Positions 3,261 to 56,235 are shown, counted from the first letter of the stretch. The stretch is DNA of 64,000 nt from a bacterium (GCA_020444325.1 JAHLLD010000002.1:286882-350881); one strand, 5' to 3'. Notes: generated by a model not told the origin, from the sequence alone. Program-made: numbers and translations.

Positions 3261-3500
3261 GGAAACCCTCGGTGTTACCGGGGGTTTCCTGCATACGGCA
3301 GATTGCAGATGACAAATTGCAGATGACAAATGGCAGATGACAAATTGCAGATGACAAATGGCAGATGGCAAATGACAAATGACCATCGTCCCCACGCAGA
3401 GCGTGTGGCCGATGAGCTAATCTGCCATCTGCGATCTGCCATCTGCAATTTGCAATTTGCAATCTGCAATCTGCAATCTGCAATCTGACATCTGCAATTT
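3261..3500. repeat. intergenic composite repeat: hairpin, direct 14-bp GCAGATGACAAA-type array, then an inverted heptamer (GCAATCT)n array
   Basis: Seen directly. A 13-bp-stem hairpin ggaaaccctcggt/accgggggtttcc at 3261-3289. About 5.5 tandem copies of [T/G]TGCAGATGACAAA at 3304-3381. A central spacer at 3383-3416, then about 12 tandem 7-mers of ATCTGC/CAATCTG at 3417-3500. The ATCTGC units are the reverse complement of the GCAGAT units on the left, giving a large imperfect palindrome. Confidence 0.85.
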
Positions 3501-3552
3501 ACCCCCCATTCCCGTATCTTTAGAATCCTGTTACAAGCACTAGGATCACACT

Positions 3553-30518: not shown

Positions 30519-31271
30519 ATGCTAACGTTGTACCTGGCATGTCTCGTTTTCGGCGGCGTGCTGCTGACCATCTCGCTCTTTGCTGGAGGGGATGCGGATG
30601 CGGACGTGGATCACGGCATGGATCTGCAGGGTGATGTCGATATGGACCACTCCATCGATCTGCATGGTGACGTCGACATGGACCATACGCTGGATCTCCA
30701 GGGTGACGTGGATACCGCGGTCGATCTCCAGGCTGAATTCGGGGAAGGGGACCTCCCGGCGGATATGACAGTGGACGGGGGACATCCGGCCGTGGACACG
30801 GTGCAGGATATTGAGAGTGGGGGACATGGGACTTCCGCGCTGTCCGCTGCCTTCGAATTTTTCAGCTTCCGCAATATGGTGTACATGACCACGTTTTTCG
30901 GTTTGACCGGGAGCGTGTTAAGCTGGCTCACCATGCCGTTCGGACTTACCCTCGGGTCCTCCATCGGCATGGGACTGTTTGCCGGGGTCGTCGGCCATCG
31001 ATTCATGCGCTACCTCAAAGGCTCGGAATCCGGCGACGCCCTGCATATCGCCAGCCTCATCGGGCACGTTGCGGTCGTGACGCTGCCGGTGACGAAATTC
31101 CGTCGCGGGAAGGTGCGTGTCGAGGCGGCGGGGCAAATCGTAGAGCTGCTTTCGCTGCTGCACGAATCCAGCGAGGCGGACGAAGTGCGACCGGGGGACC
31201 GCGTGTTCATCCTTGCTCTGGAAAAGGATGTGGTCCTGGTTGACAAAGGGGATTTTCTCGAGGAACGCTGA
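30519..31271 (+). CDS. NfeD-like membrane protein (flotillin-associated) with an Asp/His-rich tandem-repeat insert
   Basis: About 251 aa. N-terminal TM helix. C-terminal OB-fold segment (KVRVEAAGQIVELL...PGDRVFILALEKDVVLV), typical of short NfeD/YqiJ proteins. 49 nt upstream of the flotillin gene. Contains four 12-aa D.D.DH..DLQG repeats. Confidence 0.68.
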   Translation: MLTLYLACLVFGGVLLTISLFAGGDADADVDHGMDLQGDVDMDHSIDLHGDVDMDHTLDLQGDVDTAVDLQAEFGEGDLPADMTVDGGHPAVDTVQDIESGGHGTSALSAAFEFFSFRNMVYMTTFFGLTGSVLSWLTMPFGLTLGSSIGMGLFAGVVGHRFMRYLKGSESGDALHIASLIGHVAVVTLPVTKFRRGKVRVEAAGQIVELLSLLHESSEADEVRPGDRVFILALEKDVVLVDKGDFLEER

Positions 31272-32681: not shown

Positions 32682-32835
32682 TCAAGGGGAACATCAATCA
32701 AGGGGAACACAGATCTGCGCGGATTCTACGGATTTGCACGGAGAAGGTAGAAAGAACTCGCCATAATCTCCGTGAAAATCCGTAGGATCCGTGAGAATCC
32801 GTGTTACCATTGATTGATGTTACCCCTTGATTGTA
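32680..32835. repeat. ~155-bp palindromic intergenic element (MITE/REP-like), also a likely transcription stop for the flotillin gene
   Basis: Terminal inverted repeats aatcaaggggaacatcaatcaaggggaacac (32680-32710) and gtgttaccattgattgatgttaccccttgattg (32801-32833). Internal AATCCG[T] repeats in opposite orientations. A related degenerate copy lies at 17592-17658. Confidence 0.6.
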
Positions 32836-33538: not shown

Positions 33539-35464
33539 TCAGTCTTCGAGCCGCTGGGCAAACTCCAGCCATTTGTCAGATAATTCTTCGATACGCGCAT
33601 CAATCTCCCTGATGCGCTCCCCGATTTCGGCCAGGCGGGCATAGTCCCCGCCTGCGCCATTTTCCAGCTCATCTGAAAGCGTCGCTTTTTCTTCCTCCAG
33701 GGACTGGATGTCGGTTTCCAGTTTTTCGAAGGCGCGTTCTTCCTTCCAGGTCAGTTTCTTCGGATTTTTTATCGGACGCGGCTCCGCGGGCTGCCTGGTC
33801 GAGGTGTTCTTCTGCACACGCTCCTGCGTTTCCGCTTCCTGCTGTGCTTCTGCTTCCTTGCGCTCCAGATATGAAGTGTAATTTCCGGGATACTGGCGAA
33901 TCTGTCCCTCACCGTCAAATGAATAGATGTAATCGACCGTGCGGTCGAGAAACATCCTGTCGTGGGAGACGATGACGAGGAAGCCGAGGAAGTTGGTCAG
34001 GTATTCTTCGAGAGCGGACATCGTCTGCAGATCGAAATCATTCGTCGGTTCGTCGAGGAAGAGCACATTCGGATTGTTCATCAGCACGATGAGCAGGGCC
34101 AGGCGGCGGCGTTCTCCGCCCGAAAGAGTGCCGACCAGCGCTCCCTGTTTTTTATGGGGGAAATGGAATTTTTTCAGCATATCCGTCGCCGAGAGATAGC
34201 GGTCTCTTCCCACACCCGTGTCGATGTACTCCGCCACTTCACGCAGCGTGGCGATGACACTTTTACTTGGATCGAAGTCCGTGTTTTCCTGCCGGAAATA
34301 ACCGATGCGTACGGAGCTCCCGATCTTCACACTTCCTTCGTCGGGCTCGATGTTCCCGCAGAGCACGTTGAGCAGGGTGGATTTCCCGCAGCCATTGGGT
34401 CCGATAATGCCGATGCGATCACCTGCCGTTGCGCGATAGGTGAAATGCTCGAAAAGGAGCTTGCCGCCTATGCTCTTTGCGATATTGACAGCGTCGATGA
34501 TTTTGCTGCCGAGGAAGCTGTCGCCCACTTCGATCTTGATGCGTTTTTCCTGCACCGGTTTTGGTGCCGCATGCATCTTCGCGATCCAGTCGATGCGGCT
34601 TTTCTGTTTGCTCCGTCTCGCCCGCGCTCCGCGCTGTAGCCAGGCAAGTTCCTGCCGCAGTTTCGAGCGTGTGCGTTCGGCTTCTGCCTCCTGTGCGTTT
34701 ATCATCGATTCGCGCCGCTCGAGGTATTGCTCATAGTTGCCGGGGAAACTGATGAGCTGCTGCTGATCCATTTCCACAATACGATTGACCACGGCGTCGA
34801 GAAAATAGCGGTCATGGGTGATCAGCAGCAGGGCGCGGGGGGACTGCTGAAGGCGGTCCTGCAGCCACTGCACGGAATCCGCATCCAGGTGATTTGTCGG
34901 TTCGTCGAGGATAAGCAAATCCGGATCGCGCAGCAGTGCACGCGCAAGTGCGACGCGCTTTCGTTGTCCGCCCGACAGTCGGCGCACATCCGCGTCAAAC
35001 TCCTGCACACCGAGTTTCTGCAGGATGATGCGTGCGTCCGTTTCCAGCGACCAGCCCTGCACATGCTCGATGCGCTCCGTTACGGTATCGAGTTCCTTCT
35101 GCAACGCTGCATCGTGCGACTTCGCGACGAGGCCGCACAGCTGCTCATGCCTGTCGAGCAGATCCCGTACCTCGCTTCTGCCATCGAGTACTGCATCAAG
35201 CACCGTCTGCTCTACGGGAAAGGATGGCATCTGCTCAAGGTATTCGAACGTGGCCTTGCTGTTGAAGGCGACCTTCCCGTCATCCGCATCTTCCGTGCCC
35301 GCAATGATGCGCAGCAACGTCGTCTTGCCCACGCCGTTCTTCCCGATAATGCCCACACGTTCGCCTTCCTCCATACCGAAGGCCACATCCGTAAATAGCG
35401 GCTGCTCGTGAAATGTCTTACTGAGTCCGTTGGTTGAAAACAATACCATGCATGCAATGTACAT
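33539..35464 (-). CDS. ABC-F family ATPase (tandem ABC domains, no TMD; translation-factor type)
   Basis: 641 aa. Two Walker A sites (GKNGVGKTT, GPNGCGKST), two signature motifs (LSGGQRKRVALA, LSGGERRRLALL), an inter-domain linker and a C-terminal coiled-coil. Confidence 0.9.
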   Translation of the reverse strand: MYIACMVLFSTNGLSKTFHEQPLFTDVAFGMEEGERVGIIGKNGVGKTTLLRIIAGTEDADDGKVAFNSKATFEYLEQMPSFPVEQTVLDAVLDGRSEVRDLLDRHEQLCGLVAKSHDAALQKELDTVTERIEHVQGWSLETDARIILQKLGVQEFDADVRRLSGGQRKRVALARALLRDPDLLILDEPTNHLDADSVQWLQDRLQQSPRALLLITHDRYFLDAVVNRIVEMDQQQLISFPGNYEQYLERRESMINAQEAEAERTRSKLRQELAWLQRGARARRSKQKSRIDWIAKMHAAPKPVQEKRIKIEVGDSFLGSKIIDAVNIAKSIGGKLLFEHFTYRATAGDRIGIIGPNGCGKSTLLNVLCGNIEPDEGSVKIGSSVRIGYFRQENTDFDPSKSVIATLREVAEYIDTGVGRDRYLSATDMLKKFHFPHKKQGALVGTLSGGERRRLALLIVLMNNPNVLFLDEPTNDFDLQTMSALEEYLTNFLGFLVIVSHDRMFLDRTVDYIYSFDGEGQIRQYPGNYTSYLERKEAEAQQEAETQERVQKNTSTRQPAEPRPIKNPKKLTWKEERAFEKLETDIQSLEEEKATLSDELENGAGGDYARLAEIGERIREIDARIEELSDKWLEFAQRLED

Positions 35465-35496
35465 CGAATGCAGTCAAATCCCCGAATTGGCAATTT

Positions 35497-35925
35497 GCAG
35501 ATGGCAGATTGCAGATTACAGATTGCAGATTACAGATTACAGATTACAGATTGCAGATGGCAGATGGCAGATGGCAGATTGCAAATTGGGCAGGAGCGGG
35601 GATTGCTTCCCACGGCGTGTCCCCGGATGCTTGCCTGGCGCCCGGAAGCAATCCCTGATTTGCGGAACATGGAAGTATTGAAAGATCGAATAATGGAATC
35701 ATAAGGATGATGTCATATTTCCATTTTCCATCATTTCATTTTTCCATACTCAGCGTTCCTCCGGTAGCACTCAGAATCAGGGATTGCTTCCGGGCTTTGC
35801 GCAGGTATCCGGGAACACGCCGAGGGAAGCAATCCCTGCTCCTGCCGAGTTTGTAATCTGTAATCTGTAATCTGTAATCTGTAATCTGCAATCTGCCATA
35901 TGGAATATGGAATCTGTTATCTGGA
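35497..35925. repeat. ~430-bp composite inverted-repeat element: heptamer (RCAGATK)n array plus hairpin module on each arm, flanking a 106-bp AT-rich core
   Basis: Left arm 35497-35660: 13 tandem heptamers (GCAGATG/GCAGATT/ACAGATT), then ggcaggagcgGGGATTGCTTCC-33nt-GGAAGCAATCCCtgatt. Right arm 35767-35925 is the ~85%-identical reverse complement (tcagGGATTGCTTCC...GGAAGCAATCCCtgctcctgcc, then (GTAATCT)n). The core 35661-35766 is about 70% AT. The element lies between divergent ABC-F (-) and M20 peptidase (+) starts. Confidence 0.85.
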
Positions 35926-35995
35926 CTGATTTTTTGTATATTCCTCAATTCACGTCTAAATCGCCCAATTTCGTGCACCAGCAGGAGCTATAGTG

Positions 35996-37378
35996 ATGAA
36001 AGAGCTTGCGGAGTATTTCAAAGCCAACCAGGATCGCTACATGGAGGAGTTGGCGGAGTTTATCAAGATTCCGAGTATCAGCGCGCATGCGGAACGGCGG
36101 AAGGACATCTCAAAGGCCGCCAAATTCACGGAAAAACAGCTGAAAGCGGCGGGATTGAAGAATGTGAAACAGTATCCCACCAAGGGGAATCCCGTTGTGT
36201 ACGGTGAATGGCTCGGTGCAAAGGGAGCACCCACCGTTCTGGTGTACGGACATTATGATGTGCAGCCTGTCGAGCCGCTTGAGAAATGGAAATCCGAACC
36301 GTTCACCATGACGATTCGCGGTGGGAAAATGTTCGGCCGCGGTACGGCGGATGATAAGGGACAGGTGTTCATTCACTTCAAGGTGATCGAAGCTTACCTC
36401 AAGACACAGAAGAAGTTACCGGTCAACATCAAAGTCATCGTTGAGGGTGAGGAAGAGGTCGGTAGCATCAATCTGGTGGATTTTGTCAAGAAGCATCGCA
36501 AGCTGCTGACCTGTGATACCATCCTGATTTCCGATACGAACATGCTCGGGAAGACCAAGCCGAGTATCACGTACGGACTGCGTGGACTCACGTACCTCGA
36601 GCTTTCCGTGACCTCCCTCAACGGCGACCAGCACAGCGGTACCTTCGGCGGCGGCGTGGCCAATCCGATTCAGGTGTTGTCGGAGCTTCTCGTCAAGTGT
36701 AAGGACCCGAAAACCAGCAAGGTGAAAATTCCAGGATTCTACGATGACGTGGTCCCCCTGAGCCGTAAGGAGCGCAATGAACTCGCAAAGATTCCGCACG
36801 ATGACAGGATGTATGCAAAATCCATCGGCGCGGTCAATACTTTCGGTGAGAAGGGGTATACGACCATCGAACGCACCGGTGCTCGTCCCACCTTTGAAAT
36901 CAACGGCATGTGGGGTGGACACACGGGAGCGGGTGTGAAAACCGTGCTGCCGGCATCCGCGCATGCGAAAGTTTCGATGCGCCTTGTCGCCAATCAGGAT
37001 CCTGACAAGATTGCAAAGCTCTTCAAAGACTATATCAAGAGCATCGCGCCGGACACGGTGAAGGTGGATGTCAAACTGTATGAGAACAACGGGTATGCCG
37101 CGCTGACGCCCATCAACGCTGACGGTATGAAGGCAGCGGGAGCCGCGATCAGAAAGGTGTACAAGAAGGATCCCTTCTTTACCCGCGAAGGTGGTTCCAT
37201 TCCTGTCGTGGCCGATTTCCAGCGCCTGCTCGGAGTGGAAGCCATTCTCCTCGGTTTCGGCCTGCCTGACGACAATCTGCATGCTCCCAATGAGAAAATG
37301 GATATATCCCAGTTCAATAAGGGACTCACGACAACGATGCATTTTCTCGAGGAATATGCCGCGCTGAAGCAGAAATAG
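35996..37378 (+). CDS. M20 family dipeptidase/peptidase (ArgE/DapE/CPG2-type, with dimerisation domain)
   Basis: About 460 aa. M20 metal-binding motifs (GHYDVQPV, GRGTADDKGQ, EGEEEVGS). Confidence 0.85.
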   Translation: MKELAEYFKANQDRYMEELAEFIKIPSISAHAERRKDISKAAKFTEKQLKAAGLKNVKQYPTKGNPVVYGEWLGAKGAPTVLVYGHYDVQPVEPLEKWKSEPFTMTIRGGKMFGRGTADDKGQVFIHFKVIEAYLKTQKKLPVNIKVIVEGEEEVGSINLVDFVKKHRKLLTCDTILISDTNMLGKTKPSITYGLRGLTYLELSVTSLNGDQHSGTFGGGVANPIQVLSELLVKCKDPKTSKVKIPGFYDDVVPLSRKERNELAKIPHDDRMYAKSIGAVNTFGEKGYTTIERTGARPTFEINGMWGGHTGAGVKTVLPASAHAKVSMRLVANQDPDKIAKLFKDYIKSIAPDTVKVDVKLYENNGYAALTPINADGMKAAGAAIRKVYKKDPFFTREGGSIPVVADFQRLLGVEAILLGFGLPDDNLHAPNEKMDISQFNKGLTTTMHFLEEYAALKQK

Positions 37379-55397: not shown

Positions 55398-56120
55398 GTG
55401 ATTTCAATAATCATCCCGACGCTTGACGAAGAAAAACTGCTGCCGCAGATTCTTGCGCAGTTCCCCGCAGAACTGTGCCGCGCACATGATGTGGAAATCA
55501 TCATCAGTGACGGGGGCAGCAAGGATGCGAGCACACAGATCGCGCGGGAGCATGGAGCCGTCGTCGTTGAGCATGAGGGCGATCACCGGCAGACCATTGC
55601 CGAAGGAAGGAATCGCGGTGCGGAGGTTGCCCGGGGCGACATCCTCGTTTTCATCAACGCCGACATCCGTATCAGTGATGTGTCCTCCTTTTTCCGGGAT
55701 ATCGAAAGCTGTCTGCAGCGTGATACTGTCAGCGGTGTCACGGCAGTGGTGAGGGTGTTTCCCGAAGAGGAGATCCTCTCGGACCGCATGTTCCATTTCT
55801 GGCACAATCATTACGTGCGCTTTCTCAACGCCATCGGCGAGGGAATGGGGAGGGGAGAATGCCAGGTGCTGCGCAGGGAAATGTTCCGAAGCATCGGCGG
55901 CTATAACGCCTCGATGGTCGCGGGCGAGGATTACGACCTGTTTCGCCGTGTGCGGAAAAAAGGGAAAGTCGTCATGATGCCGCATACGGTGATCTATGAA
56001 TCCCCCAGGCGCTTCCGTAAGTATGGTTACCTGCACATTTTGTGGGGCTGGACGAGAAATGCGCTGGCGGTGATTTTCCGGAATAAGTCCTCAAGTGAGG
56101 AATGGGAAGCAGTGCGCTGA
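55398..56120 (+). CDS. family 2 glycosyltransferase
   Basis: 240 aa. GT2 fold motifs (IIIPTLDEE, DGGSKD, FINAD, acidic ED motif). Confidence 0.8.
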   Translation: MISIIIPTLDEEKLLPQILAQFPAELCRAHDVEIIISDGGSKDASTQIAREHGAVVVEHEGDHRQTIAEGRNRGAEVARGDILVFINADIRISDVSSFFRDIESCLQRDTVSGVTAVVRVFPEEEILSDRMFHFWHNHYVRFLNAIGEGMGRGECQVLRREMFRSIGGYNASMVAGEDYDLFRRVRKKGKVVMMPHTVIYESPRRFRKYGYLHILWGWTRNALAVIFRNKSSSEEWEAVR

Positions 56121-56162
56121 GGAATGGGAAGCAGTGCGCTGAGGAATGGGAAGCAGTGCGCT
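56097..56162 (+). repeat. perfect 22-bp tandem repeat x3 (gaggaatgggaagcagtgcgct) spanning the GT2 stop codon
   Basis: Seen directly: three identical consecutive copies at 56097-56118, 56119-56140 and 56141-56162. The first copy encodes the C-terminal EEWEAVR-stop of the GT2 gene. Confidence 0.92.
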
Positions 56163-56235
56163 GAGGCTTGGAATTCAGTTCGCCTGGCGGCATATTTTAT
56201 ATGGAGTTGTTCAATCTCGTCTGCAGGTGAAAAGT

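Follow-up and report, generated by a model that had tools for sequence, protein, structure and literature searches.

A lineage-specific palindrome of facing heptamer arrays between divergently transcribed ABC-F and M20 dipeptidase genes

Introduction

The origin and function of heptamer microsatellites, which many bacterial genomes contain in excess and often as facing pairs, have called for an explanation ever since cyanobacterial STRRs were first described. Heptameric SSRs are over-represented in bacteria (PMC4692102). Xanthomonas genomes each carry ~185 GGGAATC arrays, mostly of four units and forming 70-75 convergent pairs, which vary between close species and whose function is unknown (Rehm et al. 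2015, PMC4692102). The TAACTGA repeats of Beggiatoaceae, Cyanobacteria and Bacteroidetes (MacGregor 2015, PMC4679880) precede start codons and come as 169 direct sets and one inverted set, within a few nucleotides of the start codons; relatives may have shorter, repeat-less spacers, and contigs often end in the repeats (PMC4679880). REPINs are doublets of REP sequences that RAYT transposases mobilise (Bertels & Rainey 2011, PMC3116915). Finally, the parS/operator site of plasmid pSM19035 consists of 7-10 contiguous 7-bp heptads in mixed orientation, at least four of which are needed, located upstream of promoters and served by a cognate RHH protein, omega (PMC9499535).

Here, we describe a ~430-bp composite quasi-palindrome (site A, 35495-35923) in a 64-kb stretch of bacterial DNA, hereafter the window, together with a sibling site 3.3 kb into it (site B, 3297-3498). 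With their 7-nt tandem unit, intergenic location, facing pairs and a unit family shared by two loci within 64 kb, these arrays belong to the heptameric SSR class. Like the Xanthomonas pairs, they are dispersed and have a genome-specific unit, are often convergent and close, could form a stem-loop or cruciform, and vary among close relatives. Unlike those pairs, they have 10-13 units rather than mostly four, site A encloses 263 nt with a second palindrome layer (H1/H2, see below), and the taxon is an uncultured lineage, homologues of the flanking proteins coming from MAGs labelled Ignavibacteria or Bacteroidota. Moreover, in contrast to the G-rich units of Xanthomonas and Nostoc (GGGAATC, GGGGAYT), the units of site A (CAGATTG, CAGATTA, CAGATGG) contain no G-tracts, which makes a G-quadruplex impossible. 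The window arrays also resemble the cyanobacterial STRRs, the Nostoc heptamers and TAACTGA in being genome-specific, intergenic tandem heptamers, often shortly upstream of start codons. They differ from TAACTGA, almost all of whose sets are direct and a few nucleotides from starts, in forming facing pairs that end 45-78 nt upstream. As for pSM19035, the likeness lies in contiguous 7-bp units of mixed orientation upstream of promoters, whereas the window site is chromosomal, has up to 13 units per arm in strictly facing blocks, has a different consensus and is associated with no known protein.

Results

Site A lies where the initial annotation had placed it, between divergently transcribed genes encoding an ABC-F ATPase (Uup/EttA-like, - strand) and an M20 dipeptidase (+ strand). 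From left to right, it is composed of (CAGATTR)x13, GGCAGGAGC, a 57-nt hairpin module (H1), a 114-nt non-palindromic AT-rich centre, a second hairpin module (H2), GCTCCTGCC and (YAATCTG)x10 (Table 1). Tandem Repeats Finder gave a period of 7 for both arrays, with 13.4 copies and 89% matches on the left and, in inverted orientation, 10.3 copies and 87% matches on the right. The inverted arms were confirmed by a repeat search, which placed them at 35512-35660 and 35775-35923, 149 nt long, 81% complementary and 114 nt apart. The stem 12-mer, GGGATTGCTTCC, occurs exactly four times, at 35599, 35644 (- strand), 35780 and 35825 (- strand), against a chance expectation of 0.44 with up to one mismatch, and the observed number of matches was reached in none of 100 shuffles. 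Similarly, a pattern of three heptamer units gave 23 matches for 0.00 expected, all of them within 3299-3494 and 35498-35902. Together with the folding energies below, these counts bear out the claim that the ~430-bp composite palindrome is real, organised and far beyond chance.

Table 1. Coordinates of the features of sites A and B and of the conserved blocks flanking site A
Feature	Position	Strand	Description
ABC-F-side conserved block	35450..35466	-	Short, shared with relatives; TACATT box at 35461-35456
Left heptamer array	35495..35588	+	13.4 units; outer to inner: CAGATGG, CAGATTG, CAGATTA, CAGATTG, CAGATTA x3, CAGATTG, CAGATGG x3, CAGATTG, CAAATTG
Inner junction GGCAGGAGC(G)	35589..35598		Complementary to 35838-35846
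Hairpin module H1	35599..35655		12-bp perfect stem GGGATTGCTTCC/GGAAGCAATCCC, 33-nt loop
Centre	35656..35779		TGATT/AATCA (35656-60, 35775-79) prolong the palindrome
Inner centre	35661..35774		114 nt, 61% AT, non-palindromic; ATGGAA motifs left, TTCCAT motifs right
Hairpin module H2	35780..35836		Reverse complement of H1; stems identical, loops 24/33
Right junction T-GCTCCTGCC-GAGTT	35837..35851		Pairs with 35589-35597
Right heptamer array	35852..35923	-	10.3 units, TGTAATC on + strand; - strand, outer to inner: CAGATAA, CAGATTC, CATATTC, CATATGG, CAGATTG, CAGATTA x5, CAAACTC
M20-side conserved block	35929..35995	+	~88-92% identical to L122, which lacks the element
Site B left array	3297..3383	+	12 units, CAGATGA/CAAATTG/CAAATGG; higher-order periods 14 and 42
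Site B centre	3384..3418		35 nt, small hairpin CCACGC-agag-CGTGTGG
Site B right array	3419..3498	-	11 units; - strand GCAGATT/GCAAATT/GCAGATG

Symmetry is unevenly distributed along the element. In the arrays 59 of 77 positions match, in the junctions (GGCAGGAGC/GCTCCTGCC) 9 of 10, in the stems plus TGATT all 29, in the loops 24 of 33, and in the centre 13 of 57; the centre is therefore non-palindromic, and the palindrome ends at 35660 and 35775. The perfect match of the stems, compared with loops and arrays, points to constraint on the hairpins or to their active homogenisation. As H2 repeats H1 in reverse complement, the two hairpin modules of the initial annotation are the two arms of a single palindrome rather than separate units. 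An AT-rich core is indeed present, but not one of 106 bp with ~70% AT as stated: the best 106-nt segment reaches 66%, and 70% is attained only in the central 81 nt. This inner centre may be what is left of an earlier facing array that has since degenerated; we found no homologue of it in the searched collections or at the relatives' loci. The units of the two arrays are interchangeable variants, alignable in many slipped registers, and the outer units of the right array are degenerate, with two ATGGAAT among them.

The predicted folding of site A is extremely stable, with energies of -263.6 kcal/mol (z = -19.8) for the + strand as RNA, -243.2 (z = -20.0) for the - strand as RNA and -156.6 (z = -21.4) as DNA, none of which was equalled by any shuffle; H1 by itself, as RNA, gives -35.6 kcal/mol. 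Rfam, at gathering score, returned tRNA only over the whole window, and when 35400-36050 was searched with E up to 10, the best hits had E >= 1.8 and none was relevant. The ORFs that run over the element are artefacts, as had been supposed, produced by read-through of stop-free heptamers.

Site B separates citrate synthase from ychF, with a terminator on one side and the probable ychF promoter on the other, and consists of 12 units facing 11 (CAGATGA, CAAATTG, CAGATTG) of the same heptamer family around a 35-nt centre; Tandem Repeats Finder counted ~11 copies in each arm. Its right array ends 54 nt ahead of the ychF ATG, with a TATCTT box in between (3515-3520). The suggestion that site A shares its unit with this locus, as part of a dispersed family of arrays, thus holds for the arrays only: both sites are convergent, and they have in common the heptamers (CA[GA]AT[GT]N), not the hairpins, the centre or the flanks. 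Site B RNA folds 25 kcal/mol better in antisense than in sense (-126.9 vs. -101.4 kcal/mol), whereas the better-folding strand at site A is the + strand, a pattern that selection acting on a sense transcript would not be expected to produce. Outside the arrays, heptamers in the window are neither enriched nor skewed, and a Chi-like or otherwise dispersed single-copy signal was rejected on these grounds. Separately, CCCACGC-loop-GCGTGGG hairpins recur intergenically in the clade (window 3391-3407; L128 3098-3115 and 3160-3177; L125 11426-11443), one of them in the middle of the palindrome at the ychF site, and may, from these few cases, be a REP-like motif.

The window holds other repeats. A third long intergenic palindrome, at 32686-32825 just after a Band_7 gene, has 59-nt arms that are 83% complementary around a 22-nt centre and are made of 16-nt tandem units (GAACAnnAATCAAGGG x2) and ~10-nt ACGGATTnnn x3; the corresponding position is occupied by (CTAGGAC/GTAGGAC)x6 in L125, by a degenerate version in L127 and by nothing in L122. 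A perfect 22-nt tandem repeat of 3.2 copies, TGAGGAATGGGAAGCAGTGCGC, at 56096-56166 runs into an ORF that starts at 56146. The 36-nt x 3 repeat at 30603-30709 (77% matches) seems to be located within coding sequence and so is probably a protein repeat.

When a degenerate heptamer pattern was scanned on genome contigs, it matched at least 120 loci in many phyla. Among the matches listed, many of the genomes also carry other period-7 arrays, and facing unit pairs within 400 nt were convergent in 10 cases and divergent in one, with centres usually of 3-59 nt. A higher-order version of the facing-array theme was seen in a member of the Chloroflexota, Oscillochloris sp. ZM17-4 (L018 2937-3247), where four ~66-nt tandem composite units, (ATTGCAG/ATTGTTG)n + TCCGGATCCCGACCGAGCAGGCACAGATAA, are followed by inverted (GCAATCT)x4.

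The ABC-F start is recorded at 35464 (641 aa), but the start codon is probably the alternative ATG at 35449, giving 636 aa: the proteins of relatives are 635-637 aa long, and the DNA upstream of their genes aligns at that point. The M20-side conserved block, which contains a T-tract, a TATATT box (35937-35942) and, ahead of the M20 start codon (ATG, 35996), an AGGAG, is the probable promoter and leader of that gene, and the ABC-F-side block is the probable core promoter region of the other; both lie outside the element. TA[ACT][ACT]TT boxes have a density ~7 times higher upstream of genes than within genes (0.47 vs. 0.07 per 100 nt), each of the conserved blocks between array and start codon (M20, ychF and ABC-F) contains one TAnnTT box, and the arrays end 45-78 nt ahead of the start codons beside such promoter-like boxes. 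The promoter positions are inferred from this enrichment and from conservation. A scan of 35350-36050 for sigma-70 promoters and intrinsic terminators gave no hits, no clear promoter consensus emerged from hexamer enrichment, and the Bacteroides-type TAnnTTTG box had no exact match in 49 upstream regions, only the looser TAnnTT being enriched. Since the blocks next to the start codons are shared with relatives, both promoters are probably outside the element, which would thus sit in DNA without transcription between two divergent core promoters. The AT-rich centre, lying upstream of both, appears dispensable as a promoter, and the proposal that the core is the promoter source does not agree with the placement of the conserved TAnnTT blocks outside the arrays.

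Comparison with relatives reveals how the locus has changed. In the closest of them (L122, L123 and L124, with 92% aa identity in M20), the ABC-F and M20 genes likewise stand side by side in divergent orientation, but their spacer measures 172 nt, has no element and is conserved with the window only over ~67 nt before M20 (35929-35995) and ~17 nt beside the ABC-F start. In the sister lineage (L128 and L147, 89%), the same place upstream of ABC-F is occupied by (GTGCAAA)x4 facing (TTTGCAC)x4, with arms of 49 nt that are 80-86% complementary and a centre of ~150 nt. The window's inner junction at 35589-35598 resembles GGGAGGGAGCCGC at the corresponding position in these two loci, the likeness being between their GGGAGGGAGCCGCTGGATT and the window's GGGCAGGAGCGGGGATT. 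L128 and L147 are 93% identical to each other, with equal copy number and shuffled unit variants. In L127 (83%), (ATCAGCN)x3 immediately precedes the ABC-F start, one copy of this motif being retained in L125 and L128. Beside the ABC-F start, L128 also carries a relic of a unit other than GTGCAAA, AAGATGGC AAGATGGA, and the window unit GGCAGAT is this relic octamer less one base. From these comparisons, the left array looks to have arisen locally, out of motifs that relatives already possess upstream of ABC-F.

The picture at site B is similar. Members of the same sister lineage (L155 and L156) have (GTGCAAA)x4 ... (TTTGCAC)x3 around a 125-nt multi-hairpin centre, which carries ACCACGC-gtaa-GCGTGGT, matching the CCACGC-agag-CGTGTGG of the window. 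In L157 the units are octamers, GGCAAGAT x3 facing ATCTTGYC x4, and in L154 purine-rich facing quasi-arrays persist despite a different upstream gene. The arms are complementary in every case, with differing units. As judged from these alignments, position and architecture persist while unit sequence, and even unit length, turns over; units have been replaced alike at both sites of one genome. The palindromes with a different unit at both sites of the sister lineage indicate that the feature is more than an accident of a single strain.

More distant relatives have one to three small genes between ABC-F and M20 (213-227 aa, no Pfam; L125 8389-9725, L127 7874-9871, L128 2215-2883). As these are missing in both the window and L122, a deletion has occurred here in the window's sub-lineage. 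We tried and rejected the idea that the element is a remnant of these lost genes, the inner part being unmatched in blastn and tblastx comparisons of 35440-36000 with the relatives' loci. A GGATTGCT motif upstream of the small genes, considered as a source of the hairpin stem, was dismissed as a coincidence, the 222-aa protein of L128 being unrelated to the others.

Discussion

The element is a fast-changing, lineage-specific palindrome of an already known, poorly understood kind, and is probably neither a MITE nor a sequence-specific conserved regulatory site. Our preferred reading, to which we assign a probability of about 0.5, is that it is a palindromic microsatellite in probably untranscribed DNA upstream of promoters, grown by slippage, with arms that correct each other and a propensity to form hairpins or cruciforms. 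Two convergent 7-bp SSR arrays would thus flank an inverted duplication, from which the junction and H1/H2 may have originated, and a short unique centre. The arrays would lengthen and shorten through replication slippage, and the complementarity of the arms could be kept up either by selection for pairing or by repair in which, within a hairpin or cruciform, one arm serves as the template for the other. Such structures would be extruded under negative supercoiling between the divergent promoters, making the locus unstable and prone to loss, and the element would at most modulate or insulate the adjoining promoters. We count in favor of the palindromic microsatellite the second window site, with the same architecture and unit family but another centre, the interchangeable units of the arrays, the facing heptamer arrays seen in many phyla, and the short-read contigs of the same strain that end inside the arrays.

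Because these contigs stop in the arrays (Logan contigs L152, L001 and L153, from the same strain in SRR14069905 and five other samples, end at ~35534, 35866 and ~3466), the interior of the element rests on the window's own assembly, and with 35535-35865 uncovered by these independent contigs a chimeric inverted join had to be weighed. We see next to no chance of this. A fold-back artefact would be near-perfect, whereas here the complementarity of the arms is only 81%, their units follow different orders and the loops have diverged; in addition, the flanking genes are neighbours in relatives too, and the independent assemblies of L128 and L147 have a similar architecture at the orthologous site. 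Mobility, with the facing arrays and perhaps the inner module spread as a MITE or REPIN-like variant by a transposase-like activity, is more probable than an artefact, though still unlikely. The element is small, non-coding and AT-rich in its middle like a MITE, with long inverted terminal regions (149-nt arms, 81%), and like REPINs it is extragenic, forms a hairpin from two inverted copies and belongs to a lineage-specific repeat family at more than one site (PMC3116915). The L128 relic beside GTGCAAA arrays could, moreover, mean successive waves at one site. However, there is no target-site duplication, the flanks AATTGGCAAT and GACTGATTTT not forming a direct repeat; the outermost ends are microsatellites of variable length instead of defined termini; and no related IS was found in the window. 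Where REP sequences are defined palindromes of ~20-30 nt, the window has tandem heptamers, and we found no REP-like conserved 20-30-nt unit, centres and junctions differing between sites that share only arrays, never inner parts or flanks. No second copy of the hairpin module or the centre was found in the window or at the relatives' loci, nothing elsewhere in the 64-kb window matches the arms, the hairpin module (exact stems with a 25-40 nt gap) had no hits in JGI metagenome contigs or viral contigs, and blastn of 35589-35851 against plasmids and phages gave no match. Finally, the unit GGCAGAT is close to motifs that pre-existed at that position in relatives. The MITE-like mobility raised by the initial annotation therefore finds no support in the termini, in the inner module, of which no second copy turned up in the window or the collections searched, or in the left array, seemingly derived in place.

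Equally improbable, in our view, is a regulatory role in which transcription would start in the AT-rich centre and proceed outward in both directions, and in which ABC-F and M20 would be controlled through structured 5' leaders (RNase III targets, for instance) built from the hairpins and the array stems. The extreme folding stability of both strands, the perfectly conserved H1/H2 stems, and the position of TAnnTT-like boxes such as CATATTTCC in the most AT-rich part of the element would all fit. Yet relatives devoid of the element retain promoter-like blocks by the genes, the scans returned neither sigma-70-like hits nor an Rfam family, and the sibling site folds better in antisense. The ordinary 172-nt spacer of the closest relative, an outcome that the initial annotation itself had named as speaking against conserved function, weighs against both this role and any conserved regulatory element. 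Less easily dismissed, although we consider it doubtful, is the possibility that the arrays are contiguous sites, one per 7 bp, for a putative unit-specific DNA-binding protein, so that facing arrays upstream of promoters would be operator- or centromere-like, with unit and protein evolving together. This would account for one unit being used at both sites of a genome and another in a different lineage, for the 10:1 orientation bias among the matches listed, and for arrays that end 45-78 nt before start codons beside promoter-like boxes. The contiguous heptads of pSM19035 parS offer a precedent: of the four or more contiguous 7-bp sites needed there (PMC9499535), the window has 10-13 per arm and the sister lineage four. 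On the other hand, the closest relative has lost the ABC-F/M20 site without replacement, the unit becomes 8 nt long in L157, heptamers are not enriched outside the arrays, and no candidate binding protein was identified; it would also be hard for a regulator to have two to three of the seven positions altered in every one of its sites within so short a divergence.

The palindromic microsatellite reading accommodates most of these observations, but local slippage alone leaves unexplained why each genome has one unit at both sites and sister lineages another. The facing repeat hairpin kept upstream of ychF in four lineages, even in L154, could reflect selection for a function. The concerted, genome-specific unit and the perfect H1/H2 stems together leave room for a trans-acting, unit-specific mechanism. 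In its boldest form, which is speculative and which we think unlikely, the repeat unit would be specified in trans in each genome of this clade, with a putative heptad-binding protein, or a templated process that adds or copies repeats, installing and maintaining the facing arrays at sites upstream of promoters, and a shift in its specificity would replace all arrays in concert (RCARATK in the window, GTGCAAA in the sister lineage, GGCAAGAT in L157).

On a practical level, such elements break short-read assemblies and yield spurious ORFs. More broadly, the locus offers a comparative case in which two intergenic sites keep a palindrome of facing arrays while the sequence and length of the unit are replaced at both together, and this joint replacement separates three ideas: pure slippage, conversion between loci, and a unit-specific factor. 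Were the unit indeed specified in trans, the element would be one site of a genome-wide, undescribed system of co-evolving DNA and protein, which would perhaps extend to the many phyla in which such arrays are found.
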